64,000 nt of DNA from a virus (IMGVR_UViG_3300036801_000174:1-64000); one strand, 5' to 3'; counted from the stretch's first letter, positions 19,542-49,338 are shown. The notes: generated by a model from the sequence alone, not told the origin. Numbers and translations are program-made.

Positions 19542-19573
19542 GTCTGCTCCCGGTAGAAGCGGGCTGGCAGGCA

Positions 19574-24040: not shown

Positions 24041-24060
24041 CCCCTGCCAGACTGGAGCGC

Positions 24061-33351: not shown

Positions 33352-33385
33352 AAAAACGCCCCGCCAGGGGCTCCTGGGCGGGGGC
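33352..33385 (-). terminator. intrinsic terminator
   Basis: CGCCCCGCC/GGCGGGGCG stem followed by TTTTT on minus strand. Confidence 0.6.
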
Positions 33386-34484: not shown

Positions 34485-34676
34485 TTACTGCAGGCCCTCA
34501 GCCCGAAGGTCGATCACTTTTGAATCGGCATTCAGTTCAGCGAGGGTTTTTGTGGGGTTCCAGGTCAGGATCGGGCAGTCATCGGTCTGGCACCACGCCT
34601 GGGTGCCGCCGCCCATCAGCCATACTGGCGGCTCACCGCAGGCGGGGCACTTCAGCCCCACCGGCTCGCTGTTCAC
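34485..34676 (-). CDS. small zinc-ribbon protein
   Basis: CPACG..CQTDDC, GGAGG upstream. Confidence 0.55.
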   Translation of the reverse strand: MNSEPVGLKCPACGEPPVWLMGGGTQAWCQTDDCPILTWNPTKTLAELNADSKVIDLRAEGLQ

Positions 34677-34680
34677 CTGC

Positions 34681-35832
34681 TCATCCTCCCTCGGCGACCG
34701 CGTGAAGCGGGCGCGGCGCCCTCTCGGCCTGCACCTCGGCCAGCAGTCGCCCGGCCGTCTTATCGCCGACAGGAAGCTCCTTCATCACCAGGTACTTGGA
34801 GACCTTGCCGCGGTCGGCGAACAGTTCCCGGATGCCTTCCCGGATGTCCTCGTCGGTTGCCTTCCGGCCACCCTTCCGGCGTGCCTTCTGGACGGCACCT
34901 GCGGGTGGCTTCTGCGGGGCAGTTGCGGATGCCTTCCGGGGGGCCGTCTGTGGTGCATCCCCAGCGGGTAGCTCAGGTGCCGCCTGAGTGACCGTCTCGG
35001 GTGCAGTCTGGAGGTCGTTCGAGATGGCCTCCGAGAGGGCCTCCGAGAGCCCCAGGCGGCGTGACAGCCAGCTGTCCAAGACCGGCTCCCAGTGAGCCGC
35101 TCCGCCCCACGTAAGGCCGTCCTCGATGGCCTGGCGCACATCGGCCGGGAAGCGGCCCGTGCGCATGGCCGTGGCCACCGACAGCGGCACCGGCAGGCCA
35201 GGCTTGCGGGCCAGCACCGCGGCCACGGTGTCGCGCAGGTAGACGCGGGCGTCCTCAATGGCGTTCATCAGCGGCCAGGTGGTGACGCCGAGCAGGTTCT
35301 TGCGGCGCCACATGAAAAACGTCGGGCCCGGCGATGCCATCCAGCGCCGGAGCGGGATCGCGTCGACTGGCTCGGGCGGCGGCTTGCGGAGCGCCTTCCA
35401 GATCAGCCGGAGCACCTCGATGCCGAGGACCCAGGCTGTGGGGCAGGCCGCAGCGAGGATGACCCACAGCAGCGAGTCCGCGAGCGTGGCTGCCCCGTTG
35501 CCGAAGATGGTCAGTGCGGCGAATCCCCAGGCCGCGATCCTGGCCAGCCGCGACGGCCAGCCCAGGGCAACCAGGAGGTGATCGGCGATGACGTAGGTCG
35601 GGATGCCCAGGTCGATCATCAGGGGCAGCAGCCACGGCGAGTGCCAGCCATGGGCCGCAGCTGCGGCGGACAGGTTCCAATACGAGAACCAGGCGCCGGC
35701 GGCCATGGAGGCGATGACGAACGCGACTGCCACGCCGAGCCAGAGCTTCTGGGTGTCGCTGAGACGGCTGCGTCGGGCGTGGGCGGGCAGTGCAGGTGTC
35801 GGTGCGTGCATGCCGTCCATGTTGGCGGTCAC
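34681..35832 (-). CDS. DUF2637 / SpdB-like spread membrane protein
   Basis: SYWNL..A..HGW..LPLMIDLGI, four TM helices, IPLRRWMASP..TF.MWRR, C-terminal HTH-like segment. Confidence 0.75.
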   Translation of the reverse strand: MTANMDGMHAPTPALPAHARRSRLSDTQKLWLGVAVAFVIASMAAGAWFSYWNLSAAAAAHGWHSPWLLPLMIDLGIPTYVIADHLLVALGWPSRLARIAAWGFAALTIFGNGAATLADSLLWVILAAACPTAWVLGIEVLRLIWKALRKPPPEPVDAIPLRRWMASPGPTFFMWRRKNLLGVTTWPLMNAIEDARVYLRDTVAAVLARKPGLPVPLSVATAMRTGRFPADVRQAIEDGLTWGGAAHWEPVLDSWLSRRLGLSEALSEAISNDLQTAPETVTQAAPELPAGDAPQTAPRKASATAPQKPPAGAVQKARRKGGRKATDEDIREGIRELFADRGKVSKYLVMKELPVGDKTAGRLLAEVQAERAPRPLHAVAEGG

Positions 35833-35869
35833 GGGTGATCCTTCCTCGGATTTCCGGCTCAATGCGTGG

Positions 35870-36124
35870 TCAGTGGTGCCTGCGGGGCAAATGCGACTCC
35901 CGGCCACCACCTGGCCCGGGGCCAATCGCACGCTGGCGCTCAGCCTTGAGCCGGCGGAACGCCTCGGCGTCGGGACCGCGGTTCTGCCATCCGAACGCGC
36001 CTTCCCAGAACAGGTCAGTCATTACGCGGTCAATCTGGTGCGGGTCGCCGTTCTCGGCGCCCTGGCCGGCCACACCAGCAGGGGGGCGTACCGGCTCAGA
36101 ACCTGGCTTGTGAGTCATGATCAT
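35870..36124 (-). CDS. hypothetical protein
   Basis: AAGGAG RBS, 84 aa. Confidence 0.55.
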   Translation of the reverse strand: MIMTHKPGSEPVRPPAGVAGQGAENGDPHQIDRVMTDLFWEGAFGWQNRGPDAEAFRRLKAERQRAIGPGPGGGRESHLPRRHH

Positions 36125-36130
36125 TTCTCC

Positions 36131-36295
36131 TTAATTTCCGGGGCGCCGGGCCACGGGTACGACACGGTGAGCACGCTCGCCCCGGACGATCATGAGGACG
36201 ACCGCAGCGATCATGAGCACGCAGATGGCTGCGATGAGCCAGGTGGGCAGGGCGCCGATAGCGGCGACGATGGGCCAGGGATGGGTGTTTGTCAT
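36131..36295 (-). CDS. small membrane protein
   Basis: GGGAG RBS; MTNTHPWPIVAAIGALPTWLIAAICVLMIAAVVLMIV.. Confidence 0.55.
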   Translation of the reverse strand: MTNTHPWPIVAAIGALPTWLIAAICVLMIAAVVLMIVRGERAHRVVPVARRPGN

Positions 36296-36307
36296 GGGGT
36301 GCTCCCT

Positions 36308-36532
36308 TCAGAAGCGCTTAGTGATCCTTATCCAGGTATGGAACGGTCCCCTGAGGCTGTAGAACACCCCGAAACCGCGCCTGCGGTGATGCCGGAAGAG
36401 CAGGACGTGGACCACGAAGTAGCCCAGGACGATTGCGGCGAGGATGTGCATTGCTTGCTCCTTGAACTGGGGGCCCCGGCGCGGGCCCCGGCGGCTGGTG
36501 ATTGCCCGCGCCGGGGCGTCTGTGGTGGTCAC
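36308..36532 (-). CDS. small membrane protein
   Basis: hydrophobic helix plus basic tail; internal AAGGAG-ATG start possible. Confidence 0.5.
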   Translation of the reverse strand: MTTTDAPARAITSRRGPRRGPQFKEQAMHILAAIVLGYFVVHVLLFRHHRRRGFGVFYSLRGPFHTWIRITKRF

Positions 36533-37464
36533 CGCGATCTGCCTCCCCGGGGAGGGCGGTTACGGTAGGTGACTTCGGCTGGGAGCGGCACATGCGGCCG
36601 GTCTGGGCGGTTACGCTCTGCGACATCCTGTGTCCCTGATGTCCTAGATTGTCCTAGCTTTCGGTCCGGGGAGACCCGCCCGAAGGGCGCTGTGCCGGCC
36701 CTCCCGGCTTGCTGGCGCTCCGGCTGTGACCCTGCGTCACTTCGGCGCAGGCGCCCGCGCACCTTGGCAGTCACCCGCTGTAGCCGTCCCCGGTGCTGCG
36801 CCCACGCCTCGTCCTTGGACCCGGTGTAGCCGCCATGCTTGACGGCCAGCCCGAACACCCAGTCGGTGCTCTTAAAGCCGAAGTGATCCCTGACCTTGCT
36901 CAGGTTCTCGCCGTCGCGGAGCATCTGCCCGGCGTCGCGGCCGACCTGCTCAACGCACGGGACGCACCGCTTGCCGGGGTTGCGCGTCTTGCCGCGGCAG
37001 CGCTCGTGGTTGATGCAGTCGTGCTGCGGCGGGGGCACCGGGAGCGGCCTGCCGCCGTTGTTGCGCACCTTGTCCTGGTGCTGCTTCGGGCCGTCCCCGG
37101 TGAACAGGTTGCCGCCCCGGGCGCGGGACTCCTCCTCCGTCGTACCGGGACGCCAGGAATTGTGGGTTCCCACATCGTCCCAGTGCCGCGACTGCAGGCC
37201 TTCTGGGATCGGGCCGCCTTTGAATGCGAAGTTCTCCAGCACCACGCGGTGCGCCTGGCGGGTCACCCGCTTGCCGTCCTTGTCCAGGTACTTCACCAGG
37301 ACGTAACCGTCATCAGTGGTGGTGGTGGCGATCGGCTGGGCCTTGAGGTTGCGGCCCGAGGGGGACTTGCGGGCGTCGGCGTAGAAGTTGCCGTCCCAGC
37401 TGACCCGGAACCCGGGCCACGCGTCCCAGATCGGTTTCCACTGCTCGGGTTCGTGGTCGGTCAT
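36529..37464 (-). CDS. divergent NUMOD4/HNH-like protein
   Basis: EQWKPI..FRVSWDG..DGYVLV..AHRVVLENF..SRHWDD..N. Confidence 0.65.
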   Translation of the reverse strand: MTDHEPEQWKPIWDAWPGFRVSWDGNFYADARKSPSGRNLKAQPIATTTTDDGYVLVKYLDKDGKRVTRQAHRVVLENFAFKGGPIPEGLQSRHWDDVGTHNSWRPGTTEEESRARGGNLFTGDGPKQHQDKVRNNGGRPLPVPPPQHDCINHERCRGKTRNPGKRCVPCVEQVGRDAGQMLRDGENLSKVRDHFGFKSTDWVFGLAVKHGGYTGSKDEAWAQHRGRLQRVTAKVRGRLRRSDAGSQPERQQAGRAGTAPFGRVSPDRKLGQSRTSGTQDVAERNRPDRPHVPLPAEVTYRNRPPRGGRSR

Positions 37465-38291
37465 CGTGACCTCCCGGTGTGCGAGTGGTGCCTGCCGCCG
37501 CTCTTCGGCCTGTCGTCGTGTCCCTGCAAGGCCATTACGAACAGGTCACGGATTGTGGCGGCGCGCTCCGTGCGGGCATCAAGGGCCGAGCGGAGGCGCT
37601 CAAGCGACCGGGGGTCGTTGTAATCGGCGAGCTTCCAGAACTGCCACCAGCGCGGGTTCCGCGCCAGCGCCCGGCGCACTTTGGCAGCTTCGGCCTTCGC
37701 CTGCTCGTGGGTAGCGTTCCAGTAGTAGGCGCACATCTGGCCCGTATCAGCCCACGGGGAGTGCTCCTCCGCGGTTGCCCCGAGGAACACCAGGCGCCCG
37801 ATGAGGCCTGCGGCCTTCTCCTCATCGAACGGGCCGCTGGCGACGGCCAGGCCCTTCAGTTCGGCGTCCAGGGCGACCGGATCGCCGACTTCCGCCCGGG
37901 GCATGAGGCTGAAGGGGAGACCCTTCTGCACGGCGCGCCTGGAGGCACCACGCCACAGGCCGAGGAAGAACATGAGGCTGTCGTCAAGGCGGAACAGTTC
38001 AGCGCGGCCGTCTCCGGTGATCTGGCTGTCCGCGAAGCGCTTGTGGAAGGCGTCCTCCACGTCCTCGCCGCCTGGCACCAGCATGAGCACGTCCTCAAAT
38101 GAGAGGTAGAAGCCCCGCAGCCGCGCCTTCAGGCTGGTGGACGTGCCGATCTTGACGTTGTCACCCATGCGCACGAAGTAGACGACCGGCAGGTGATTCT
38201 CGCCTGCGAGGATGCGGGCCAGTTCAACACCACCCGCATAGCTGCGCTTGTCCATTCCCTGCTCCCCCTCAGGTCGGTTACGGCTTGTCAT
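37461..38291 (-). CDS. T5orf172/GIY-YIG-like domain protein
   Basis: VVYFVRMGDNVKIGTS..RL..E..FHKRF..ELF. Confidence 0.7.
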   Translation of the reverse strand: MTSRNRPEGEQGMDKRSYAGGVELARILAGENHLPVVYFVRMGDNVKIGTSTSLKARLRGFYLSFEDVLMLVPGGEDVEDAFHKRFADSQITGDGRAELFRLDDSLMFFLGLWRGASRRAVQKGLPFSLMPRAEVGDPVALDAELKGLAVASGPFDEEKAAGLIGRLVFLGATAEEHSPWADTGQMCAYYWNATHEQAKAEAAKVRRALARNPRWWQFWKLADYNDPRSLERLRSALDARTERAATIRDLFVMALQGHDDRPKSGGRHHSHTGRSR

Positions 38292-40162
38292 CGCGCTGCG
38301 CTCCCTATCAGGCGGCGCTCCTCTTCCCAGTCGGCGATCTCAACCGGGTCGTAGGCGGGTGCGGATCCCTTCTTGCGGACCGGTTCCGGGACGGGCTTCC
38401 CGGCCGCCCGGTCGCGCTGCATCTGCTTCTTGACCGCGTCGGGAGTCGGCCCGGTGATCTCGCGGTCGACCAGCTCGGCGATCGTCAGGGGCTCCGGCGG
38501 AGGGGGCAAAGCGGGCATATGTCCACGACTTGCCGGGACATCCGGGCCAGATTCCCCGGTGTCCGCGACTTGACCGCTGTCCGGGACAAGGCGCAGGGCG
38601 AGCTTGCGGGCCGTGCCGGAGGCTTCCTGGGCAGCGCGCTCAGGAGTGCCTAGCGGTGCGAGGGTGCCTTCGATGCCGAGACACGGCATGTCGCCGGCTG
38701 CGCTGGCGATGACGCCTGCCGTGGCCCAGGCGCGGGCCTCGGCGCCGGTCATGAAGGCAGCCTGGATCTCGGTGCTGGTCTTCGCGGTGACCACATGGAG
38801 GCGCCCCTTGACATCCGACCCGGCCGGCAGCGGGTGACGGTCGCCGACGAGCATCTTCCAGGTGGACGCGGCCGGGTTGGAGATGAGCTTGAGGCCCAGG
38901 TTCTCGCGGCTGTCCGCCGAGCCGCCGCCGGTTGCCTTCGCTGACAGCCGCTGGCCGATGTAGACCAGGTTGACCGCGACGGCGCGGCCGGTGAACGCAA
39001 CCCGGTCCAGCGCGATCACGGCCGGTGACATGCCCTTGCCGCCGATGGACCGCCAGTAGGACTTGAGTTCCGCCGCGGTCGCGTTCAGTTCTTCCAGGAG
39101 GGCGACGATCCTCGGGCCGGGGTTGGCGTGGACCTTGCCCTCAACGTCGGCGTGCAAGACGGCCAGGGCGTTGCGGCGGTCCACTTCGGCGGCCAGCCAG
39201 AGTGCCAGCTGGTGCACATCCTCGATCGTGCGGGCGTAGGCGACGTTGGGCAGGCCCGCCGCCCACTGGTGGCTCACGAGTTTGCGGTCCAGGACAACGG
39301 TGAGGGCGCCGTGATAGGCAAGCTGGGCGGCAGCGAGGCGGGCCGTGACACTTTTGCCATCCCCTGTGGGCATCGACAGGCCCAGGTGCGGGGAGTCGCT
39401 GTCGACGCTGACGATGAACGGGTCACTGGCGCCCTTGCGGGTCAGGCCCAGCACCATCTCGTGCTCGGCCGCTGCCTCCGCAGCGGCCAGGATCTCGGCC
39501 CAGGCGACGAAGCCGGGCATCGGCTCCGCCTTGGTGAACACGGCAACCGGACGGCGCCGCAGCGGCGACTGCGACCAGGCAATGCCGGGCGGCCCGGCGA
39601 TCGCGATCCGCGGCACGGCGGCGAGGACAGCCTGGCTGACCTTCTCCTTGGCCTGGACGTCGAAGTCAGGCCCGAACTCAAGCCACACCTTGCTGTGGTC
39701 GCGTGCGACCTGGGCGTCGCGGGCAGGGATCCCGGCAGTGGCGAGGGACTGTTCCAGCGGCTGAACGTTGTCTTTGACGTGGGTCCAGTTCCGCACGGTC
39801 CAGGTGAAGTGCCATATCCCGGCGAGGATCGCCACGGCGGCGATGACAGCAAAGACGCGGAGGGTGGCAGTGCGGTGCGCTGCGAGACCCCATGCGGTCG
39901 CGAGGATGGCGATGGTGGCCAGATGGCGGGCCAGGGCACGCCGGGATGCGTCGGGGTGCTTCTTGCCGGTGCCCCGGCGGGCCGCGTCCCTGCCTGCGGG
40001 AGTGCGGGGCTGACCGTCAAGCGGGATACCGGCAATCCACCGTCCCGCCGCTGTCAGCTTGCCGTGCTTGCGGCTGTGCTCCGCAATCCGTGACACGACC
40101 GCAAGAACCACCACAACGCAGACGATGATGACCGCGAGCGTGACAATGCTGCTAGTGCTCAT
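38288..40162 (-). CDS. FtsK/SpoIIIE-family (TraB-like) DNA translocase
   Basis: N-terminal TM helices, SPHLGLSMPTGDGKS Walker A, IVALLEE Walker B, GRA..Q motif, C-terminal winged-HTH-like tail. Confidence 0.8.
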   Translation of the reverse strand: MSTSSIVTLAVIIVCVVVVLAVVSRIAEHSRKHGKLTAAGRWIAGIPLDGQPRTPAGRDAARRGTGKKHPDASRRALARHLATIAILATAWGLAAHRTATLRVFAVIAAVAILAGIWHFTWTVRNWTHVKDNVQPLEQSLATAGIPARDAQVARDHSKVWLEFGPDFDVQAKEKVSQAVLAAVPRIAIAGPPGIAWSQSPLRRRPVAVFTKAEPMPGFVAWAEILAAAEAAAEHEMVLGLTRKGASDPFIVSVDSDSPHLGLSMPTGDGKSVTARLAAAQLAYHGALTVVLDRKLVSHQWAAGLPNVAYARTIEDVHQLALWLAAEVDRRNALAVLHADVEGKVHANPGPRIVALLEELNATAAELKSYWRSIGGKGMSPAVIALDRVAFTGRAVAVNLVYIGQRLSAKATGGGSADSRENLGLKLISNPAASTWKMLVGDRHPLPAGSDVKGRLHVVTAKTSTEIQAAFMTGAEARAWATAGVIASAAGDMPCLGIEGTLAPLGTPERAAQEASGTARKLALRLVPDSGQVADTGESGPDVPASRGHMPALPPPPEPLTIAELVDREITGPTPDAVKKQMQRDRAAGKPVPEPVRKKGSAPAYDPVEIADWEEERRLIGSAAR

Positions 40163-40331
40163 CCGTCCCTCCCGCGATGGCCTTGACGTGATGGAAGACC
40201 CATACGGCGCCCTGCTTCACGAGCCAGCCAGCCATGCACGCCGCAGCCAGGGCGGTGAGCATGACCGCGCGGGCCTTGTGGCGGCGCCACAGGCCGTCTG
40301 CCCGGCTCAGGTACTGGCTGGCTCGCTGCAT
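40152..40331 (-). CDS. small membrane protein
   Basis: AAGGAG RBS, 59 aa with one TM helix. Confidence 0.55.
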   Translation of the reverse strand: MQRASQYLSRADGLWRRHKARAVMLTALAAACMAGWLVKQGAVWVFHHVKAIAGGTDEH

Positions 40332-40353
40332 GGGTAACTGGCTCCTTGCCGGT

Positions 40354-41007
40354 TCAGCGGCTACGGGCACGGGTGGGCTGGCGGATGGTCTCGTGAGGCA
40401 GCGGGTGCGCGGTCCTGGCAGGTGCCGGTGCGCTGCGCTCCTCCGGGGCGTGGCCGTTGGTGGCGGCCTTGCCGGGCTCGCTGCGGGTGACGTCCTTCTG
40501 GGCGCCATCGGGGCGCGGGTCGCGGCCACGGGGCATCGGGTGGTCCTCCTGGCCAGGCCGGGTCCGTGCGCTGAGACGCTGGCGCAGCGACGGACGCCCG
40601 GTGCGCTCCTTACGGGGCTTCTGGCCCTTCTCCCGGCGCTCCGCCCGCTGGTCCCGGTCCCGCTGCCTGAGGTCGGCTTTGGCCAGCGGGCGGTCAGTGA
40701 GCGGGGTGTAGCCGCGCCAGGGAGTGGCCGGGCCGGGTGCCTGGCGCTTCGGCGCCTTCGCTGGCTCAGCGCGGACGCCGAGGGTCTTGTGCATCCGCTT
40801 CGGCGTGACCTTGCGCACCGCAGCCTTAGCCACCGCCGCGCTCCGGACCCTGGCACCGCGCTGGCGGTGCAGGATCTTCTGGATCTCGCGGTGGGCCGCT
40901 ACCCGCACTGAGTGGAACGGAGAGCGCAGCGCCTTGATCGCCTTCTGCAGCTTCAGCTTGTCGCGGACGCTGAGGGGGCGGTAACTGGATCCTTTTCCTG
41001 TAGCCAC
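40354..41007 (-). CDS. basic hypothetical protein
   Basis: AAGGAG RBS, R/K-rich 217 aa. Confidence 0.55.
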   Translation of the reverse strand: MATGKGSSYRPLSVRDKLKLQKAIKALRSPFHSVRVAAHREIQKILHRQRGARVRSAAVAKAAVRKVTPKRMHKTLGVRAEPAKAPKRQAPGPATPWRGYTPLTDRPLAKADLRQRDRDQRAERREKGQKPRKERTGRPSLRQRLSARTRPGQEDHPMPRGRDPRPDGAQKDVTRSEPGKAATNGHAPEERSAPAPARTAHPLPHETIRQPTRARSR

Positions 41008-42782
41008 TGCGGGCTCCTTGCTTCAGACGGGATCTTGCTGCCATCGGAGACGGCAGGCGGGACGGGTACGGCGGGCATCGGGATGGCCTGGCGGTGCGGG
41101 GCCTCGATCGCGGGCTGCGGCTGCGGTGCGCAGGCCGGGAAATTCTCGGGGCCGAGAGGGGCGGCGCAGTAACCGCGGCGCTCCCACACGGGCGTGACGC
41201 GGGCGAACACCGGGCGGGTAGACCGGTGCAGCACCAGGGCCTCGAACTTGGCCAGCATGCGGATGCGCTCCGGCGGCACGGCGCGCTCCTGGCGTGGCTG
41301 CCTGGTTTTCCCGCCGCCGGGGTTCTTGACGTGATCCCAGGTGTCGCGTGGCCCGCACACCGCAGAGATGGCCTCAAGATCCTGGTGGTTCGTCTCCCCG
41401 CCGAAAATGACCTTCACTGTGGCGTTGGTGAAAATCGTCTGGCCGTCCTGGTCGCCCCAGCGTGACCGCAACTGCGAGAGTGCCTGGATAGACGCCATAA
41501 CGGTGACGCCATGGCCGCCGGACTCACTCATCCACTTGTGCAGCGGCACCGGGCAGGTGATCGGCGCCTCGTCCAGGGCCAGGGTCAGCGGGCGGGGCAG
41601 GCGCGTGCGGGGGCTGGAGGACGCGACCCTCTTCGCGGTCTCAAACAGGTGCGCGGTGAACGTGGCGAAGTAGGGGGCCAGGGAACCGTGCGGCTTGTCG
41701 GCGCCGATCAGGTAGATCGTGCCGGTGCCATCGCGCACGAAGCGCTCAGCATCGAACTCCGTCCCCGGCGCGGGGCATGCAGCGGCGGCCATGGCCGGGT
41801 CGGACAGCCACGCCAGGGCGGTCATCACGCCCGTGGACGTGTAGCCGCCGTAGTTCTCGTCAGTGTTCATGCGCTCGGCCATCGCGGCGATCTCGTCGCC
41901 CCACCCGGGCGCCGCGTTAGCGTGCGTGGCCAGCACCCTGAGGGGGGTGGGGTCGGCGAGAACGGCAGCGGCCCAGCGGCGCACTTCCCAGATCGTCGCG
42001 CCGGGGATCAGGGCGGCCGCATGAAGCAGATACTGCAGGAAAGTCTTGGACTGGTGATCCCACCATGCGTCCTTGCCGGAGGAGTCCTTCGGCGCGGCGT
42101 TGATCAGGTATCCGGCGCGCTGCATCGCCACCGCCGGGTTCTCGCAGCCGCGTACAGGCGACCACGACAGGGTTGAGGGGATGCCGCCATCGCCGTCAGG
42201 GTTCAGCACCCAGATGGGCCCGTGGGCGCTGCGCGGGACGGCGGTATTGGCGTACAGGTCGGTGCGCGTCGAGGTGGCCAGTACCGCCCCGGGGGCATCA
42301 GAAATCCAGCAGCCCAGCAGCCCGGACTTCCCGGTCCGGGGCGGCGCTATGAGGATGTAGGTGTCTTCGGCGCTGCCAGCGAGCGTTCGGCCTTTCGCGT
42401 CGCCGATGACGACGTGTGATGTGTGGATGCCCGCGGTGCGGCGGCTGGCGGCGCGGGGTGACAAGTTGCCGCTGATCTCGCTGCGCGACGCTGTGCCCTG
42501 GTACTTGCGGCGCCTGCGCTCGGCCACCTTCCCGCCGGCGCGGCGCAAGCGCACAGCGTCGGTCACACCACGGACCCGCAGTACCGTGACCCCGCCAAGC
42601 GCTACCCAGCCGTAGGGGATGCCCGGGGCCATGTGGGCCGCCTCGGCGATGATCCCGGCGGTCAGGATGACGGCCGGTGGTGCGGTGCCCCTGATGGCCG
42701 AGCGCTTGGCCCTGCTGGCGCGGTCACGGACGGACCGCGGCAGGACGCTGCGCTTGGCCTTCGGGGCGGCGTTGGTCTTCAC
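40953..42782 (-). CDS. VirD4/TraG-like type IV coupling protein
   Basis: IAPPRTGKS Walker A, ATSTRTDL, WSPVRGC, LALDEA Walker B, GHGV..IQALSQLRSRWG. Confidence 0.85.
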   Translation of the reverse strand: MKTNAAPKAKRSVLPRSVRDRASRAKRSAIRGTAPPAVILTAGIIAEAAHMAPGIPYGWVALGGVTVLRVRGVTDAVRLRRAGGKVAERRRRKYQGTASRSEISGNLSPRAASRRTAGIHTSHVVIGDAKGRTLAGSAEDTYILIAPPRTGKSGLLGCWISDAPGAVLATSTRTDLYANTAVPRSAHGPIWVLNPDGDGGIPSTLSWSPVRGCENPAVAMQRAGYLINAAPKDSSGKDAWWDHQSKTFLQYLLHAAALIPGATIWEVRRWAAAVLADPTPLRVLATHANAAPGWGDEIAAMAERMNTDENYGGYTSTGVMTALAWLSDPAMAAAACPAPGTEFDAERFVRDGTGTIYLIGADKPHGSLAPYFATFTAHLFETAKRVASSSPRTRLPRPLTLALDEAPITCPVPLHKWMSESGGHGVTVMASIQALSQLRSRWGDQDGQTIFTNATVKVIFGGETNHQDLEAISAVCGPRDTWDHVKNPGGGKTRQPRQERAVPPERIRMLAKFEALVLHRSTRPVFARVTPVWERRGYCAAPLGPENFPACAPQPQPAIEAPHRQAIPMPAVPVPPAVSDGSKIPSEARSPQWLQEKDPVTAPSASATS

Positions 42783-43039
42783 CGTGACCGCCCCTTGCTG
42801 CGGGGCGCCCGCCGATCGCGCACCCGGTCAGGCTGGCGGTCTTCATCTGTCTGCTCACGCCAGGCGAGGTAGGAGTCACGATGGAGTTCCAGGTCGCTGA
42901 GATCACGCACGCCGTGTACTTCCTTCAGGTAACTGGCACGCTGCTCCTCGCTGTAGCCGGCCTTGCGCAGGCGCATCATGGCCCGGTCTGGTGATCCGTG
43001 ACGCCATTCGTCCCTGGCTGCACGCTCGGTGTCGTTCAC
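42779..43039 (-). CDS. hypothetical protein
   Basis: GAGG then GTG; GTGA-coupled to the coupling protein. Confidence 0.55.
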   Translation of the reverse strand: MNDTERAARDEWRHGSPDRAMMRLRKAGYSEEQRASYLKEVHGVRDLSDLELHRDSYLAWREQTDEDRQPDRVRDRRAPRSKGRSR

Positions 43040-43047
43040 TGGACGCC

Positions 43048-43638
43048 TCACCGGGTCCTCCCCCGCTGGACTGGCTCCCGGTCTTCCCACGGGTTGACGC
43101 GGGACTGCCTCAGGGCCTCTGCGGCACGGTCAGCCCTGCCGGGGCCCAGCACCTTGTCTGCGCGCTCGCGGGCGTCCACGGGCTGGCGCTGTGCGAGCGG
43201 GCAGTGCTCGTTGTGCTGCCTGGTGAGCCGCTCATTACGCTCCTGCGCCGACTCGCGCGGCTGTGCGGGAAGGGCCCGGTAGGCGTCGGGACCGTGCTCC
43301 CATGCGCCGGTGCCGGGAGTGAACGCACCCGACTTCCGCATCCGGGCGAACTGCTCGTCGCGGCGCCGGTAGATCTCGGCGTCATCGCGGCGGGGCCTGC
43401 CTGTGGCCGGGTTGATGCGGTCCCGGTAACCCGGCAGCGAGGAGCGGAGGCCGCGGGTGGCGCGCTCGGCCCAGAAGCCCTTGCCAGTCTCGGCGAACCG
43501 GCGGCGGCGCCAGTTGCCCACCTGGCCGGAGACGGTTCGCAGCGGACGCGTGGCCCGGTAGAGACCGTTCTGCAGGGGCACTGTGGCCTTGCGCGCGTAC
43601 CAGGGAGCGTCGTGAGCGTAGTCAGACAGGCGGCTCAT
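43048..43638 (-). CDS. Arg-rich hypothetical protein
   Basis: GGAGG RBS, ATGA coupling. Confidence 0.6.
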   Translation of the reverse strand: MSRLSDYAHDAPWYARKATVPLQNGLYRATRPLRTVSGQVGNWRRRRFAETGKGFWAERATRGLRSSLPGYRDRINPATGRPRRDDAEIYRRRDEQFARMRKSGAFTPGTGAWEHGPDAYRALPAQPRESAQERNERLTRQHNEHCPLAQRQPVDARERADKVLGPGRADRAAEALRQSRVNPWEDREPVQRGRTR

Positions 43639-43856
43639 CGTGACCTCCCTCGCCGCTGCGCTCGCTCAATGGCGGCGTGCGCTTCGTTGGTCACGGAGTT
43701 ACGGCGCACGGCGGAGCGGTCTCGGCCCACGTTGCGGGAGAAGTTCTCCATGAACTCGTGGAAGGCGACCCTGCTGCCGCGCGCCGGGTCATGCGGGATG
43801 TTCCAGATCTCGGCGAAGCGGTCGTACAGCCGCTCGACTTCGCCAGGCTTCCTCAT
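43635..43856 (-). CDS. hypothetical protein
   Basis: ATGA coupling at both ends. Confidence 0.55.
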   Translation of the reverse strand: MRKPGEVERLYDRFAEIWNIPHDPARGSRVAFHEFMENFSRNVGRDRSAVRRNSVTNEAHAAIERAQRRGRSR

Positions 43857-44305
43857 GGCAATTCCTTCCGTGGCACCGGCACCGCGTCCGTGATGACGTA
43901 GGGCACCTGGATGGGTGGCTTGGTCTCGATGACCTGGACGGCGGGGGTGTTCATCGCGGCGAGGATGTGCCGCACGCTCGCCAGTTCGGCCTGCGTCAGC
44001 CCGGCCACTGCGGCACGCGCAGCAACGGGCGCGGCCAGCCGCGCGGGGCGGACGCCGCGGCGGAACACCAGCACCGTGCAGAAGCGGTGCAGGATCCAGA
44101 CCTCAGCGACGACGACACCGCAGGCCAGCGCCAGGCCGATACCCAGCACGATGGCGTATGCCACCACCCACTGGGCAACGAAGTAGAGGACGAAGGCGGC
44201 AGCCGCCACGGGTGCGACCACCATCACGAACTCGGCCAGCACCTCCAGCGGGCCGCCGGTCTGGACGGTGACCCTGGCCGGGCGGGTGTACTCGTGGGTA
44301 GGCAT
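43853..44305 (-). CDS. membrane protein
   Basis: two TM helices, GAGGT RBS. Confidence 0.6.
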   Translation of the reverse strand: MPTHEYTRPARVTVQTGGPLEVLAEFVMVVAPVAAAAFVLYFVAQWVVAYAIVLGIGLALACGVVVAEVWILHRFCTVLVFRRGVRPARLAAPVAARAAVAGLTQAELASVRHILAAMNTPAVQVIETKPPIQVPYVITDAVPVPRKELP

Positions 44306-44677
44306 CTAGGCCACCTCTTCCGTTCCGCAGCACTTGCCGCGCCGGGCGGCCTCGCACTCGGTGCACTCCAGGCGCCCGTCGCTGCGGACCCTGGTGTTCG
44401 CCGCGGAGCGCCAGTGCCCGTTGTCGCACAGCGGGGAGGGCGGCAGGGAGCCGTGACCGGAGCCCTCGAAGTCCACGCCCGCCCAGATCCCCCATCGCTG
44501 GTCTGTCGCCAGGGCGTACTCCAGGCACGGCGGCCGTGACGGGCACGCCTGGCAGACCTGCTTGGCTGCGTCGATGCCTGCCGGGTCCTCAGGGAACTGC
44601 CGGTCAGGGTCGGCGCCACACGGGAGGCCGGGGGCGTCCCGGACGGCGCGCAGGAAGACGGCAGCCGGGCTGGTCAT
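44306..44677 (-). CDS. whiB: WhiB-family regulator with C-terminal zinc finger
   Basis: C..DPD.FP..AKQVCQACPSRPPCLEYAL..WGIWAG; then CDNGH..NT..G..ECTEC. Confidence 0.85.
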   Translation of the reverse strand: MTSPAAVFLRAVRDAPGLPCGADPDRQFPEDPAGIDAAKQVCQACPSRPPCLEYALATDQRWGIWAGVDFEGSGHGSLPPSPLCDNGHWRSAANTRVRSDGRLECTECEAARRGKCCGTEEVA

Positions 44678-44764
44678 GACGACTCCTCGCCGCGGACGTA
44701 GCGTCCGCCCTGGACCTGCCACCCGAAGGAGGCCAGCAGCGGATTGGGATGCGGTGTGCCGTCC

Positions 44765-44801
44765 TTGGCATCCTCCCGGCCCTGAAGGGGCCAGGATTCC
44801 C
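44765..44801 (-). ncRNA. IS200/IS605-type right end / 3' part of TnpB omegaRNA scaffold
   Basis: GGGAATCCTGGCCCCTTCAGGGCCGGGAGGATGCCAA hairpin resembles typical GGAATCCC..GGAGGATGTCAA ends; predicted guide 44764-44749. Confidence 0.65.
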
Positions 44802-44807
44802 GGGCGC

Positions 44808-46055
44808 TCATGCCGCGCTCCGGGCGGTTCCCGCCGCCGCGAACTGCGCGGGCTTCTGCGGGCATAGAGCCGGGTGCCCCCCGGCGTGCGCAGGGATTTC
44901 GCCGCCAGTGGCGATGAGTCCCCGGGCAAGTACATTGCGCGCGGCATTTACATCGGCGTGGTCTTCGTGGCCGCACTCCTGGCACCGGAAGACCGCTTGG
45001 CTCTCGCGGTTCAGGGCGTTGGTGTGGCCGCAGATGTGGCACTGCTGCGAGGTGAATCTAGGGTTGACGAACAGGACCGTGACATCGGACGCCGCAGCCT
45101 TTTGCTCTAGCCGAGTGGCGAGGGTGCCCCAGCAGGAAGTCAGAATGCCCCGGCTCAGGCTGGCCTTGGCCCGGGCTCCGTTGCGAAGGAATGCGCTTGG
45201 CTGGCCAGGATCAGGCTTCGGCGCGGGCCTTCGGGTCATGCCCGCGATGTTCAGCTTCTCCAGCACGATCAGGTCGTTCTCACGGACCATGCGCGTGCTG
45301 ACCTTCTCCGCCCAGTCCTTGCGCCGGTCGACAGTGCCCGCAGTGATGCGTGCCATGGCCAGCACGGTGCGCTTCCGTTTCGCTGAGCCCTTCTGCTGCC
45401 GGGCCCGCTTGCGAGCGAGGGTGCAATAGCGTGCGGCGTCCCGGTCACCGATCCTCGGGGCCCGGTAGTGCTGGCCGCCCGAGGTCACCAGTGCAGTACG
45501 AACGCTGCGGTCAATACCGATGCGGCTGCCCGAGGGCTCACGGACAACGGCAGGCTGCAACGCAGCGAATGACACGTGCCACCGCCCGGCCCGGTCCAGG
45601 GTGACCCGGTAAGACTTGGCCTCGGGGACCGAACGGGACCAGCGGAAACGTACCCAGCCAAGCTTGGGAATCTGAACTGCGCCCCAGTGCCGCGACTGGC
45701 GCTTGACGCGGTAGCCGCGCCCTAGGTCATGAACCCGGAATCCCTCATTGCGCCCGGCCTTGCGCCAGGTCGGGTGCCCATGCGTGCGACCGAAGAAGTT
45801 CTGCATCGCCTGAGCGAAATCCCTGAGCGCTTGGCCCTGGACTTCAGAACTGCCAGCGCGCAGCCAGTCGAATTCGCTACGGGCCTCGGTAAGTTGCCGC
45901 GACTGCTCTGCGTAGCCGGGTGCGTTCTTGCGCCCGGGCCGCCACCAGGACTGCTGCTCGACCGCCAGGTTCCAGACGAACCGGGCGTGGGCGCAGTGCT
46001 CGCGCAGGATCAACTCCTGGGCAGGCGTCGGGTAGAGCCGGTATCGGGTGCTCAT
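44808..46055 (-). CDS. tnpB: RNA-guided endonuclease TnpB
   Basis: RYRLYPT..HCAHARFVWNLA, GIDRSV, IVLEKL, TSQQCHICG..CQECG..ADVNAARN. Confidence 0.93.
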   Translation of the reverse strand: MSTRYRLYPTPAQELILREHCAHARFVWNLAVEQQSWWRPGRKNAPGYAEQSRQLTEARSEFDWLRAGSSEVQGQALRDFAQAMQNFFGRTHGHPTWRKAGRNEGFRVHDLGRGYRVKRQSRHWGAVQIPKLGWVRFRWSRSVPEAKSYRVTLDRAGRWHVSFAALQPAVVREPSGSRIGIDRSVRTALVTSGGQHYRAPRIGDRDAARYCTLARKRARQQKGSAKRKRTVLAMARITAGTVDRRKDWAEKVSTRMVRENDLIVLEKLNIAGMTRRPAPKPDPGQPSAFLRNGARAKASLSRGILTSCWGTLATRLEQKAAASDVTVLFVNPRFTSQQCHICGHTNALNRESQAVFRCQECGHEDHADVNAARNVLARGLIATGGEIPAHAGGHPALCPQKPAQFAAAGTARSAA

Positions 46056-46234
46056 GACCAGTCCCCGAACAGGCGGTCAAGGGCGCTGAACACGCCCTCG
46101 GCGCTTTCCTCATGCAGGACGCAAGCCTGCTGGCCTTCCGGCACAGGCTCGCCGCAGACCCGGCCGTGACCCATGGAGACCTGGCAGGTACGGGGACGGG
46201 GGTTAAGGAGGTCATCGATGGTGACGGTGCTCAT
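46052..46234 (-). CDS. small hypothetical protein
   Basis: ATGA coupling at both ends. Confidence 0.55.
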   Translation of the reverse strand: MSTVTIDDLLNPRPRTCQVSMGHGRVCGEPVPEGQQACVLHEESAEGVFSALDRLFGDWS

Positions 46235-46506
46235 GACGCACGCCCCTTCCTCGGTGCGAACGGGAAGACGTTGGACGCCGGCGAGATGGGCGTGATGCCG
46301 ATGCCGGAGGGGAGTTTGGTGCGGCCCCGGCGGGCGGAAGCCGCAGCAGCCATAGCCTCGCCCGTGCTCTCGTCGAGCCGGAGGACGCTGCGCCGGAAGG
46401 CTTCCACCTGGCCGCTGAGGACGTCCATCTGGTCGCGGAGGGCAGCGAGCTCGGAGGCGCGGGCTGCACAAGACGGGCAGCAAGGGGAGGGAGCGGGAGT
46501 GGTCAT
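46231..46506 (-). CDS. hypothetical protein
   Basis: ATGA coupling, coiled-coil. Confidence 0.55.
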   Translation of the reverse strand: MTTPAPSPCCPSCAARASELAALRDQMDVLSGQVEAFRRSVLRLDESTGEAMAAAASARRGRTKLPSGIGITPISPASNVFPFAPRKGRAS

Positions 46507-46676
46507 GACGCCGCCTCGGCGTGCTCGTCGCAGGTGCGAATGCGGCGGGAGACCGAGTCAACCCAGCGGCCGAGGGGGCCGCCATCCACGCTCGCGGTCT
46601 CCTCGAAGACGATCACGCAGCCGCAGGAAGCGGTGAAGGGCTCTGGCTCGGGGAGGCGAACGCGCTTGGTGGTCAT
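46503..46676 (-). CDS. small hypothetical protein
   Basis: GAGGT RBS, ATGA coupling. Confidence 0.55.
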   Translation of the reverse strand: MTTKRVRLPEPEPFTASCGCVIVFEETASVDGGPLGRWVDSVSRRIRTCDEHAEAAS

Positions 46677-46954
46677 GCCGACACCTCACAAACGGTTAGC
46701 TCGAGGTCCGGGTCGGCCGCTACGGCGCTGAGCCGGTCGTCAAGGTCCGCGCGGCCGTAGCACGTGCGGAAGGCTGAGGAGCCGAGAGTCAGCGGGTTGA
46801 TGCGCTGCCCGGTCTTGCTCGTGACCTCGACCATGTGGCTGACGTCGAGCACAGAACCGTGGACGTCGTGACGGCAAGCGGGGCACCAGAAGACAACTGG
46901 GCCACCGTCGAGCGGGATGCAGCAGGAAGGGCAGACGGTCTGGGCGGGAGTCAT
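46673..46954 (-). CDS. zinc-ribbon protein
   Basis: CPSC..CPAC; ATGA coupling. Confidence 0.55.
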   Translation of the reverse strand: MTPAQTVCPSCCIPLDGGPVVFWCPACRHDVHGSVLDVSHMVEVTSKTGQRINPLTLGSSAFRTCYGRADLDDRLSAVAADPDLELTVCEVSA

Positions 46955-47133
46955 GACGCGATCTCCGTCTCCTGCAGTTCGCCGACAAGTTCGGGGAGCT
47001 CGGGGAGCGTCTTCTTGAGCGAGTCGTTCACGAGGCGCCAGACGTGGCCGCCGCGGATGGCGGCTGTCAGGCGCAGGCGCTTAGCGACGTCTGGCTCAAG
47101 CCAGGTGCCCAGCGGGACGGTGCCGTTTGCCAC
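46951..47133 (-). CDS. small ribbon-helix-helix-like DNA-binding protein, first gene of transfer operon
   Basis: GGGAG RBS; beta-helix-helix pattern. Confidence 0.5.
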   Translation of the reverse strand: MANGTVPLGTWLEPDVAKRLRLTAAIRGGHVWRLVNDSLKKTLPELPELVGELQETEIAS

Positions 47134-47291
47134 GCGCTCGCTCCCTTGCTATCTAGCGATCTCCAGTGCTGGATTGCTATACGCTCACTGTGCCACCATG
47201 CGCGTAAGGTTGTCAAGCGGGACATCCCTAAGCTGGTGAGGTACCGTGTCCGCTAAGCGCACGTAGCCGCACATGGTGCTAAAGGGGACGC
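47134..47291. promoter_or_regulatory. divergent promoter/operator region
   Basis: minus-strand TTGACA-N18-CACAGT (47216-47187); CACCATGCGCG vs CGCACATGGTG inverted pair. Confidence 0.6.
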
Positions 47292-47708
47292 ATGAGCATC
47301 GGGCCGTCGTACCAGCTGGTGGCCGATGACATCTGCGCCCAGATCACCTCAGGCCGCCTGGCAGTAGGCAAGCCGATCCCGTCAACGCGCGAACTCATGG
47401 CCCAGTACAAGGTGTCCAGCACCGTCGCGCGCCATGCCGTGGAAGTCCTCAAGGACGCTGGCGTGCTCGACGGCCACCCCGGGAAAGGCGTCTACGTCAA
47501 GGCCCTCCCCAAGCAGGCCGCAGCGGAGCGGGCCGACGCGCAGGCGCTGGCAAAGGAAGTCGCCGAGTTCCGCGACGAGGTCGATGAGCGCTTCGCCGAG
47601 ATCTACCGGCGGATGGGCTGGGATGAGCACAGCCAGGAAGGACAACACGATGAGCAGCGACACAACGGGCGTCGTCTCCCTGGCGCTGCGGGAGGCCTAC
47701 AAGCCTGA
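47292..47708 (+). CDS. GntR-family repressor (KorA/KorSA-like)
   Basis: YQLVADDI..I.SG.L..G..IPS..EL..YKVS..VARHAV..L..G..PGKGVYV. Confidence 0.85.
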   Translation: MSIGPSYQLVADDICAQITSGRLAVGKPIPSTRELMAQYKVSSTVARHAVEVLKDAGVLDGHPGKGVYVKALPKQAAAERADAQALAKEVAEFRDEVDERFAEIYRRMGWDEHSQEGQHDEQRHNGRRLPGAAGGLQA

Positions 47709-48441
47709 CTTCCGCTCCCTGGCATCCGGGCAGGTCCGCGCGACCAGGGAGAAACTCGGTTTAGACCATGAAGAGTTCGCCGCTCACCTGACAAGCATGC
47801 TGGGCTGGGCGGTGCAGCCTGGCGTCGTCGCCCGCTGGGAACGGGGCGAAGGCACGCCGCCCGGCGACGTGGTCAAGGCCGCAGAGGTGGCAGCACAGTC
47901 AGGACCGGACGACCCTGAGCCCAGTGGCGTCATGCCCTACGCCGACCGGGGCCTGATCTCCCGCCAGCAGTGGAACGGGATGATCGCCGGGTCGCAGGAG
48001 TTCTTGTGGCTGTACGGGATGGCCGAGCTCGGGTACGCCGAAGACGACGAGACCCCGGTCATCATCAGCGCGGCGGCAGAGGCCGGGTGCGAGGTGCGGG
48101 TGCTGCTGCTCGACCCCGCCTACCCGGGGATACCGGACATCGACGCGGCCGAAGGCAACCCGCCCGGGACGCTTGCGGCGAGGATCGGGGCCTCCCTGGC
48201 GCGGTTCTCGCGGATCCGGCAGGCCAGCGGCGGCCAGATGCAGCTGCGGGTCTACGGCACCCACCCGACCGTGAGCGTGGTGCGCGGCGATGACGAGATG
48301 CTGATCACCCACTACATGCGGTCGTTCGCCGGGTCCAACAGCCCGACGATCGGCGCGACGGCTTCGTCGGCGCCGCGGATGTTCGCGCGCTACGCTCGCC
48401 ACTTCGCTGCGGCATGGGACGGCGCGAGGGAGGCGGCGTGA
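47650..48441 (+). CDS. XRE HTH plus DUF5919-like domain protein
   Basis: N-terminal HTH (VARWERGE); VRVLLLDP..LRVY..SVVRGDDEMLITHY..G.NSP. Confidence 0.75.
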   Translation: MSSDTTGVVSLALREAYKPDFRSLASGQVRATREKLGLDHEEFAAHLTSMLGWAVQPGVVARWERGEGTPPGDVVKAAEVAAQSGPDDPEPSGVMPYADRGLISRQQWNGMIAGSQEFLWLYGMAELGYAEDDETPVIISAAAEAGCEVRVLLLDPAYPGIPDIDAAEGNPPGTLAARIGASLARFSRIRQASGGQMQLRVYGTHPTVSVVRGDDEMLITHYMRSFAGSNSPTIGATASSAPRMFARYARHFAAAWDGAREAA

Positions 48442-49028
48442 CGCTCACTAGGGACCACGGTTGCGTTATGAGCATGCAGGACGCCGAGATCGCGGACACC
48501 GAAGTGCTGCTCGACGGGCCCAAGCGGTTCGTCCGCCAGGCCCTGGTGATGCCGGACGGGGAGAAACTCGACTGGTACTACCAGGACACCCCCGCCAGCG
48601 TGATGGTCGTCCCGGTACTGCCCGGCGGCCAGTTCGTGATGGTGTACCAGTACCGATGGAATTTGCGTCACTATGCGCTGGAGTTCCCGGCCGGTGAGGT
48701 CGCGCCAGGGGAGACGCTCGAGGTGGCGCTCAAGCGGGAGCTCGCCGAGGAGACCGGGTTCGCTCTCGGCGAGGGCGGGACGATGAAGCAGCTGGGCTCG
48801 TTCTACAGCCTGCCTTCCGAGACGAACAAGGTGACCCACGTTTTCCTGGCACGGCCCGTGGTATCGGCCGGGCCGGCCCGCAAGGACGACGAGATCGAGA
48901 AGTATTTCAACCTGACGGTGCATATCACAGCGCCAGGTCTGGCCATGGCACAGATCGGGAAGTCGGTTGCGGGGACCGAGACCATCACCGCGCTGATGCT
49001 GGCCAGGGACGCTATGGGGCGGGAGTAG
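48438..49028 (+). CDS. Nudix hydrolase
   Basis: Nudix box GEVAPGETLEVALKRELAEETG; GTGA-coupled. Confidence 0.9.
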   Translation: MTLTRDHGCVMSMQDAEIADTEVLLDGPKRFVRQALVMPDGEKLDWYYQDTPASVMVVPVLPGGQFVMVYQYRWNLRHYALEFPAGEVAPGETLEVALKRELAEETGFALGEGGTMKQLGSFYSLPSETNKVTHVFLARPVVSAGPARKDDEIEKYFNLTVHITAPGLAMAQIGKSVAGTETITALMLARDAMGRE

Positions 49029-49037
49029 CCTGCGGGC

Positions 49038-49268: not shown

Positions 49269-49338
49269 AAGTGGCCGGGACCATCTCGGTGCTGCAGCTG
49301 GCGCGGGATGCGCTGGGGCGCGAGTAGCCTGCCTGAGC

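Follow-up and report, generated by a model that had tools for sequence, protein, structure and literature searches.

What a block of genes of the actinomycete plasmid-transfer type does in a tailed-phage genome is the question raised by the window analysed here, a 64-kb stretch out of a 73.4-kb IMG/VR-type virus record with a CheckV completeness of 72%. The record encodes terminase, portal, protease and tape-measure genes, and on these virion genes the element is a tailed phage, as the sequence-only reading had held. Its replication genes are lambda-like (O-like, DnaC-like and DnaB), and a gene with a weak HTH_36 match, next to which another iteron-like array is located, provides no more than a lead.

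The block runs leftward from 47,133 to 34,485 (all coordinates of its genes given here and below are on the minus strand), and many of its genes overlap by 4 bases, confirming the tight coupling that had been proposed. The promoter assigned to it was sustained only in part: a TTGACA hexamer is located upstream of the first gene, but a consensus scan of 33.0–50.7 kb gave 0 promoter-like sites. The block opens with three small overlapping leader genes (46503..47133), the first of which (46951–47133) is weakly RHH-like. At its distal end, a 322-aa putative DNA-binding protein is encoded (33475..34443; PHROG 1568, 2e-11), with a terminator-like hairpin at 33358–33371, 3′ of the gene. Four recurring parts constitute the cassette: a coupling ATPase of the VirD4 type, a membrane motor with the FtsK/TcpA fold, an HNH nuclease and a membrane protein with a DUF2637 domain. 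Five other viral contigs also encode the coupling ATPase, and in three of them (G001, G003 and G004) its gene is beside FtsK-like and HNH genes; a homologue of the 322-aa protein occupies the equivalent place in G003.

The VirD4-type type IV coupling protein (609 aa, 40953..42782) was correctly recognised in the earlier reading, as it matched three Pfam families above their cut-offs: TraG-D_C (1.9e-19; 70.3 bits, cut-off 22), TrwB_AAD_bind (1.1e-9; 38.1 bits, cut-off 20.5) and T4SS-DNA_transf (1.5e-8; 34.4 bits, cut-off 20.1). The NCBIfam VirD4-like model was matched at 9e-10, yet below the family cut-off. Alignment of the four phage copies showed no variation in Walker A (PPRTGKS), Walker B (LALDEA) or the residues K152 and D404/E405, and all four copies carry a weakly to moderately hydrophobic Ala-rich hairpin at the N-terminus (Kyte–Doolittle peak 1.2–1.5). 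Two basic proteins without family matches are encoded nearby: a very basic low-complexity protein (217 aa, 40354..41007) between both ATPases, whose conservation is limited to the N-terminal 46 residues, in G003, and a protein of 196 aa (43048..43638) upstream of the coupling ATPase, which is conserved in G001 and G003.

The second motor had been described as an FtsK/TraB-like ATPase with transmembrane helices and a C-terminal winged HTH; the motor fold and the hydrophobic N-terminus were verified and a winged helix is predicted, but the FtsK_SpoIIIE family (PF01580) was not matched. In detail, the 624-aa protein (38288..40162; Walker A PTGDGKS) had no Pfam match at 0.01, a six-frame search gave no PF01580 match at E ≤ 0.1, and only 1 of its 99 homologues carries PF01580. 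A profile of 34 homologues matched TcpA (3e-8) and FtsK (5e-3) in the PDB, and Foldseek with the AlphaFold model (pLDDT 84) returned FtsK 6t8o (2e-17) and TcpA 6o1y (1e-16). Two strongly hydrophobic segments are located at the N-terminus (hydropathy 3.3 and 2.2), and the Walker motifs are invariant in the phage copies. Residues 559–623 form a helix–helix–hairpin–helix in the AlphaFold model (block pLDDT 91–94) and are predicted to be a winged-helix domain; a Pfam HTH match was obtained with none of the four isolated C-termini. TcpA of Clostridium perfringens pCW3, the best PDB profile match and a top fold match (TM 0.57–0.64 on target), is likewise a membrane-anchored FtsK-like ATPase and has its role in conjugation, but the identity is only 16–18%, and TcpA operates within a larger Tcp conjugation apparatus that is absent here.

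The DUF2637 (PF10935) domain of the third protein, a polytopic membrane protein by hydropathy (416 aa, 34681..35931; PHROG 29003), was also verified (2.1e-11; 44.4 bits vs. a cut-off of 22.8), and the domain was found in 4/5 related records, in 2 of them above the cut-off. The several small membrane proteins noticed before have, by hydropathy, hydrophobic segments: a single one in each of two small proteins of 54 aa (36131–36295) and 74 aa (36308–36532), and one in a 150-aa protein (43853..44305).

The three core proteins are of the actinomycete plasmid-transfer type, as had been claimed, since their matches are in plasmids and hardly in phages. The coupling ATPase matched 499 actinomycete plasmid records at 31–37% identity, none of 50,697 cultured phage records and no PHROG family. 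The FtsK-like protein matched 50 plasmid records (47 from Streptomyces), annotated as ‘Tra protein’, ‘pRL2-11’, ‘FtsK’ or DUF87, and one phage among the 50,697 records; the sole cultured-phage match in tblastn was Streptomyces phage Dagobah (34% over 247 residues, in a 309-aa protein). The DUF2637 protein matched 259 plasmid records, 250 of them from Streptomyces, and one phage (two records). Consistently, the closest cluster of the ESM Atlas carries the name ‘Putative Tra protein’. The order DUF2637, coupling ATPase and ~218-aa protein was found in 2/2 Streptomyces plasmids inspected, and pFRL3 has DUF2637 followed by an FtsK-like gene and a ‘conjugal transfer protein’. The loci of the Streptomyces plasmids NZ_CP063809.1 and NZ_CP149448.1 share with the phage the pairing of DUF2637 and a VirD4-type coupling ATPase (36–37% identical), but no FtsK-like or HNH gene is adjacent, one has a MobF relaxase, and none has phage genes. 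From the plasmid matches, we infer a Streptomyces-like host. The reading favoured here, tentatively and at a probability of about 0.4, is a relaxase-free transfer or spread of phage DNA by the cassette.

Such a mixture could also be an artefact, in which assembly joined a phage to a plasmid or AICE, or a recent insertion of an independent AICE into a prophage; the record is a metagenome-type contig, 72% complete and without end repeats, with a TnpB element inside the block. Against this, the cassette adjoins phage genes in independently assembled contigs: G001, G003 and G004 each encode head, portal, terminase and tape-measure proteins of their own, and their cassette copies are 49–55% (coupling ATPase) and 30–40% (FtsK-like protein) identical to those studied here. 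G001 has the downstream HNH gene and a portal-domain homologue in common with this record, the coupling ATPase in G002 is linked to homologues of its replication genes, and G004 is a complete genome of 101,305 bp with terminal repeats. Further, GC is flat (0.67–0.71) over both block junctions, the longest direct repeat flanking the block is 13 bp, compared with 11–16 bp in 30 shuffles, and integrases PF00589 and PF00239 had no match in the 73.4-kb record. A chimera was therefore rejected, as phage genes border the conserved cassette on both sides in other contigs, and so was an inserted AICE, for lack of an integrase of these families and of flanking repeats longer than chance. Neither of the two outcomes named beforehand as fatal to the sequence-only reading, a chimera or an AICE with att sites and integrase, was found, and an artefact or recent insertion is extremely unlikely. 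The integrase and bounding att repeats of pSAM2-type AICEs were not encountered here, in line with the earlier reading, although, because the record is only 72% complete, the absences of integrase, relaxase and a VirB4-like gene are provisional.

The comparison of viral loci also brought out a different partnership. The gene of the HNH/NUMOD4-like nuclease (311 aa, 36529..37464; PHROG 8e-9) adjoins the FtsK-like gene in 4/4 cassette-bearing contigs. The FtsK-like gene was found in 25 viral loci, and among the 24 further ones that were read, an HNH gene was adjacent in 12, while the coupling ATPase was present in only 2, so the widespread unit is the FtsK-like gene plus HNH. The same adjacency was seen in two MAG loci, and in a Pseudonocardia plasmid region the HNH gene is one gene downstream. 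With this as the widespread unit, a phage-internal DNA-handling role fits just as well: the FtsK-like motor and the HNH nuclease would have their task in the infected cell, such as the movement or clearance of DNA at septa, interference with host development or sporulation jointly with WhiB, or the processing of DNA from phage or host, while the coupling ATPase and DUF2637 protein would be later accessories of one sub-lineage. The cassette of G004 is indeed placed in an early region leading into replication genes, and the FtsK-like protein matched, weakly (9e-4), PHROG 1358 ‘FtsK/SpoIIIE-like’, which is filed under host takeover. According to the available part of PMC13587820, WhiB-like and FtsK/SpoIIIE-like genes occur in Streptomyces phages, some of them described as virulent, and its authors discuss the FtsK/SpoIIIE-like ones beside FtsK-like roles in host multicellular development. 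Those of cultured phages such as Jaresh and AndoPrime resemble the present case as phage-borne FtsK-superfamily ATPases accompanied by WhiB-like regulators, but the coupling ATPase was matched in none of the cultured phages. For all three core proteins, in contrast, the closest relatives with an annotation are plasmid proteins, several in transfer-type loci, and the cassette is almost absent from the 50,697 cultured phage records. VirD4-type coupling proteins, moreover, are not known to have a role outside type IV secretion and conjugation. A phage-internal role is possible but doubtful.

Among the phage-type genes reported as interleaved in the block, the HNH-like gene and the WhiB-like regulator (44306..44947; 6e-12) were substantiated, while the T5orf172/MUG113-like (GIY-YIG-type) gene (37461..38291) was weak, at 1.4e-3 just under the cut-off; it is present in this genome only among those compared, and is probably a homing-type insertion. 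The true start of WhiB is probably further downstream, because the domain spans residues 111–159 of the longest ORF; in G004, too, a WhiB homologue is encoded ahead of the cassette. A TnpB gene (IS605 OrfB/Cas12f-like TNB domain by Pfam; 44808..46055), not listed in the earlier reading, is inserted in the block.

Divergent from the block, on the plus strand, are the genes of a GntR-family regulator (138 aa, 47292..47708; PF00392, 1.3e-13) and a Nudix hydrolase (48414..49028; PF00293, 1e-13), as had been observed, but separated by a profile-matched XRE-type HTH + DUF5919 gene (47434..48441), whose true start is probably near 47.7 kb, after GntR. The suggested likeness of this pair to that of pSAM2, with the GntR-type KorSA and the Nudix gene Pif, did not hold as a conserved feature, as neither protein had a homologue in the four relatives searched and the NUDIX family was found in 1/5 records. 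In this genome, the divergent GntR protein is likely a repressor of the block. With the TraB/Spd systems of Streptomyces double-stranded DNA conjugation (pSVH1, pIJ101 and pSAM2 TraSA), the phage shares a motor of the FtsK fold that is anchored in the membrane and has a (here predicted) C-terminal winged helix, as well as small membrane proteins and a divergently encoded GntR-family regulator; in those systems, TraB pumps double-stranded plasmid DNA across membranes and no relaxase is needed. Unlike these, the phage has a motor without a PF01580 match, GntR and Nudix genes not conserved in relatives, an ATPase of the VirD4 type and an HNH partner that is conserved. A clt of 8-bp repeats was not found either: no clt-like cluster (at least four copies within 300 bp) was present in or beside the cassette between 33 and 48 kb, the only repeat arrays being located at 50.5 kb and 69.5 kb.

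Consistent with what had been noticed before, no relaxase of the two families searched was found (PF03432, 0/5 records; PF08751, 0/1 and 0/4), mating-pore genes were not found in the record, and PF12846 revealed no separate VirB4-like gene, only sub-threshold P-loop matches inside the FtsK-like gene. Some integrative mobilisable elements dock their DNA onto the mating pore of another element, and the lack of pore genes would suit a phage that supplies its own VirD4-type and FtsK/TcpA-type coupling proteins to bring its DNA to the pore of a conjugative plasmid, ICE or AICE already in the cell. That mobilisable elements carry what such hijacking takes is stated in the available part of PMC5357655, and the MobF relaxase of the plasmid relative accompanies its DUF2637/coupling-ATPase pair. 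The phage, in contrast, showed neither a relaxase of the two families nor an identifiable oriT, and hitch-hiking of this kind is unlikely.

As for a phage-plasmid, the virion genes are there, but replication is lambda-like, no ParA (PF13614, 0/5 records) or ParB-type partition gene was found, and the portal had no Streptomyces phage-plasmid match in PLSDB. With ParA in 0/5 records and only a 203-aa tyrosine recombinase in the complete relative G004, any plasmid-like or lysogenic phase that would make transfer worthwhile is hypothetical. The Streptomyces plasmid-phage pZL12 (syntenic with pSLE1), by its published description, is likewise an actinomycete tailed-phage genome in which a locus for conjugal transfer is present, and the idea of a dual-mode element thus has a precedent in print; the present lineage adds the VirD4-type coupling ATPase, and no ParA/ParB-type gene was found in it.

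ATPase and HNH pairs are a common defence layout, and the membrane-anchored ATPases (by hydropathy) with their HNH nuclease might instead act in superinfection or entry exclusion and stop plasmid or phage DNA on its way into the cell; the Nudix protein weakly matched the candidate defence family PDC-S07 (6.6e-7). PADLOC models of known defence families, however, matched 0/9 cassette proteins, and the relatives are located in plasmid transfer-type loci, making exclusion or defence very unlikely.

Several findings count against the favoured transfer reading: only 2/24 FtsK-like viral loci have the coupling ATPase, no clt-like cluster was seen, GntR and Nudix are absent from relatives, PF01580 failed, ParA was 0/5, and FtsK/SpoIIIE-like genes are found in phages that the accessible text of PMC13587820 describes as virulent. 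Under relaxase-free transfer, a tailed-phage lineage of high-GC mycelial actinomycetes would have fixed a plasmid-derived DNA-translocation cassette in its early/middle region. A hexamer of the FtsK-like protein would sit in the membrane of the hypha, bind phage DNA via its C-terminal winged helix and drive double-stranded copies through membranes or cross-walls, so that they reach the next compartment or hypha, as TraB of Streptomyces does for plasmids. The DUF2637 and small membrane proteins would take an Spd-like spreading role, the VirD4-type ATPase may serve as a second, substrate-recruiting motor, and a relaxase would be unnecessary for double-stranded transfer of this kind.

The conserved plasmid-type DNA-pumping block suggests that these viruses may have, besides infection by particles, a particle-free way of passing DNA between cells. 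In its full form, a virion-independent second route, in which a fixed relaxase-free cassette of two motors (VirD4-type, and FtsK/TcpA-type with its HNH partner) plus DUF2637 drives phage genomes from one hyphal compartment to the next or from hypha to hypha in mating, is conceivable though rather unlikely; if it is true, these phages would be true ‘conjugative phages’ rather than phage-plasmid fusions.

The source is a single virus record of 73,382 bases, the first 64,000 of which form the window; it is classed as linear in IMG/VR, with a completeness of 72% by CheckV estimate, and no terminal repeats were found in the record and no tRNA genes within the window, which has a GC content of 65–75% all along. 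Comparison with PHROGs assigned a siphovirus-type late module to the minus strand of the left arm, including the large terminase (28132–29514), the portal (24606–27731), the tape measure (9162–12584) and HNH nucleases; an XkdF-type protease (23420–24082) and, immediately upstream of the terminase, a small sigma-r4-like HTH protein (29788–30225) are encoded on the same strand. The right arm carries on the plus strand a lambda-like replication module that runs past the window end and comprises an O-like initiator, a DnaC-like loader, a DnaB helicase, an exonuclease and a resolvase. Seven iterons, AAGGGTGCG, lie within the lambda O-like initiator gene at 69543–69729 of the full record (G000), beyond the window, and a comparable array was seen upstream of the DnaC-like and DnaB genes of a related IMG/VR contig, G004 (76288–76455). 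The window thus belongs to a tailed phage that infects a high-GC actinobacterium; the WhiB gene and the plasmid matches of its proteins point to Streptomyces or a related mycelial genus as the host.

Two further features of this genome were observed. The 1041-aa portal protein contains an internal domain (residues ~612–771) resembling 2′-5′ RNA ligase or RNA ligase, which shares 68% identity with a free-standing ORF of the related contig G001 and also matches a Streptomyces plasmid gene annotated as 2′-5′ RNA ligase family. In addition, the load of homing-type nucleases is unusually heavy, with at least four HNH-type genes (18744–19607, 30255–31364, 36529–37464 and 61520–62221) plus one GIY-YIG-like gene.

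All genes that the sequence-only reading had named were found in the window by Pfam, PHROGs and hydropathy analysis; DUF2637, WhiB, HNH, Nudix and GntR were verified, while the T5orf172 match was weak. The coupling ATPase (40953–42782, 609 aa) of the minus-strand cassette (47,133–34,485) passes three coupling-protein models in Pfam and retains intact Walker A and B motifs, and an NCBIfam search added just one sub-threshold VirD4-like match. The second motor (38288–40162, 624 aa) had been called FtsK/TraB-like; the FtsK-type motor fold and the hydrophobic N-terminus were upheld, but neither PF01580 (FtsK_SpoIIIE) nor any other Pfam family was matched. Its family has 99 members, mostly metagenomic "hypothetical proteins". 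A phmmer search of PDB with the single sequence found nothing, so that a family profile was needed; built from 34 members, it matched the pCW3 coupling protein TcpA (3e-8) and FtsK (5e-3). Similarly, the AlphaFold model (pLDDT 84) matched FtsK motor domains (2e-17) and TcpA (1e-16). Two strongly hydrophobic segments are present at the N-terminus, and a helix-helix-hairpin-helix domain is confidently predicted at the C-terminus, although Pfam detected no HTH families when the last 100 residues of four FtsK-like proteins were searched on their own. Three small proteins of the block each carry a hydrophobic segment, and no paper on DUF2637 function was found within the open-access literature. Two genes had been overlooked: an XRE/DUF5919 gene that separates GntR from Nudix, and, inside the block, a TnpB gene (44808–46055, minus strand) with HTH_OrfB_IS605, OrfB_IS605 and Cas12f-like TNB domains. 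No TnpA was seen alongside the latter, and G004 has a TnpB relative of 28% identity a few kb upstream of its cassette. As for the proposed promoter of the block, the TTGACA hexamer exists, but a consensus scan gave 0 promoter-like sites; terminator-like sites (4 vs. 5.5 expected) were not above chance.

Pattern searches of IMG/VR turned up five more viral contigs with the coupling ATPase (G001–G004 and L037), and an assembly chimera was rejected. The pairing of the two motors recurred in the survey of phage genomes, in which the coupling ATPase adjoins FtsK-like and HNH genes in G001, G003 and G004, so that the three families occur together in four of four contigs, this genome included; 4 of 5 related records also had a DUF2637 match. 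The major head, tape-measure, portal or terminase genes that G001 and G003 carry are not homologues of those in this genome, while the HNH gene downstream of the cassette is shared with G001 and the replication module with G002. G004 is a complete genome of 101,305 bp with 127-bp terminal repeats. As the earlier reading had it, no integrase (PF00589, PF00239) was found in the record and no att repeat was recognised, the flanking direct repeats being no longer than those in shuffled sequences, and an independently inserted AICE, the pSAM2-type integrative element, was also rejected. An artefact or recent insertion is therefore highly improbable, since the cassette recurs in independent viral contigs, GC is flat across both junctions and no integrase was found. 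These results indicated that the cassette is a real finding, neither a chimera nor an inserted AICE. Between contigs the cassette proteins diverge by 45–70% with their catalytic motifs preserved, which points to long retention under selection. The only tyrosine recombinase encoded by G004 (65147–65758, plus strand; 203 aa; PF00589, 5.6e-43) lies downstream of its cassette; it falls short of the size of typical phage integrases and may be a dimer resolvase.

The closest affinities of the cassette were found among plasmids. The coupling ATPase matched 499 actinomycete plasmid records, none of 50,697 cultured phage records and no PHROG family. Among the same phage records, the FtsK-like protein matched one phage (Dagobah) and the DUF2637 protein one (Gilgamesh, 2 records), compared with 50 plasmid records (47 Streptomyces) and 259 (250 Streptomyces), respectively, and a megablast search of cultured phages with the 15.5-kb region gave nothing. 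The plasmid matches of the FtsK-like protein are annotated as "Tra protein", "pRL2-11", "FtsK" or DUF87. In plasmid loci the order DUF2637, coupling ATPase and a ~218-aa protein was seen, in one case with a MobF relaxase, and in pFRL3 DUF2637 is followed by an FtsK-like gene and a "conjugal transfer protein"; the surroundings of the coupling ATPase in a Pseudonocardia plasmid were uninformative. Taken together, the matches and their neighbours in transfer-type plasmid loci indicate that the cassette is plasmid-derived.

Consistent with the earlier reading, no relaxase (families PF03432 and PF08751) and no VirB4 were found, nor was ParA, the complete relative G004 included. Hitch-hiking of the phage on a resident conjugative element is considered unlikely. 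Of the pSAM2-like regulators, GntR and Nudix are both present, with GntR divergent from the block across a 158-bp region (47134–47291), but the pair is unique to this genome among the relatives compared. No cluster of clt-like repeats, the sites recognised by TraB-type motors, was found within the cassette or adjoining it. A different array, of the 15-bp site CGGTA-N3-A-S-TTCCG, was observed at 50489–50591, with five copies (four direct, one inverted) at a spacing of mostly 23 bp. The copies occupy a 276-bp gap immediately downstream of a weakly matching HTH_36 gene (50604–51203); when one mismatch was allowed, the window held 6 matches vs. 0.32 expected. Candidate roles for this array are those of a second origin, a partition site, a set of operators or a clt. 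Besides, a 58-nt direct repeat (79% identical) occurs at 48976–49033, spanning the Nudix 3′ end, and at 49275–49332, just upstream of an ORF starting at 49339.

When the search of IMG/VR contigs was widened, 25 viral loci proved to carry FtsK-like relatives. Among the 24 that were read (L029–L052), an HNH/NUMOD4-like gene was directly adjacent in 12, while the coupling ATPase was present in just 2, so that the widespread phage unit is the FtsK-like gene plus HNH. This distribution would fit a role of the pair in phage-internal DNA handling or host development. FtsK/SpoIIIE-like and WhiB-like genes are also known from Streptomyces phages called virulent, and the authors of that work treat them together with what such proteins do in the multicellular development of the host (PMC13587820). 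Such a role is doubtful but quite possible. Exclusion or defence is distinctly unlikely, as none of nine cassette proteins matched known defence families.

The favoured reading, to which we give a probability of roughly 40%, is relaxase-free, TraB-like pumping of phage DNA. The FtsK-like motor would move double-stranded phage DNA through hyphal membranes or cross-walls, the DUF2637 and small membrane proteins would take the part of spreading factors, the VirD4-type ATPase would serve as a second, recruiting motor, and control of the block would, in this genome, fall to the divergent GntR. The dual phage/conjugative idea has precedent: pZL12, according to passages citing it, is a Streptomyces element already published as phage and conjugative plasmid at once, and the function of the cassette is put forward as a proposal. 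As far as pZL12 can be compared from its description, this lineage differs in that no partition genes were found, two coupling-type motors are paired, an HNH partner is conserved and the cassette recurs across several unrelated structural backgrounds. The open-access literature searched yielded no account of a tailed phage with a VirD4-type gene.

Phage spread within a septated, multicellular mycelium is poorly understood, and phage-plasmid surveys regard conjugation as an alternative to virion transfer (PMC10123127). Phage-conserved, plasmid-derived and nearly missing from cultured phage collections, the cassette offers a concrete candidate, open to testing, for particle-free cell-to-cell movement of a phage genome. 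Even if the proposal is false, the FtsK-like motor and HNH pair, seen in 12 of the 24 loci read and usually in the absence of the coupling ATPase, is an unstudied two-gene phage module; if it is true, it would call for a fresh look at host range, resistance to receptor loss and gene flow in actinomycetes that produce antibiotics.
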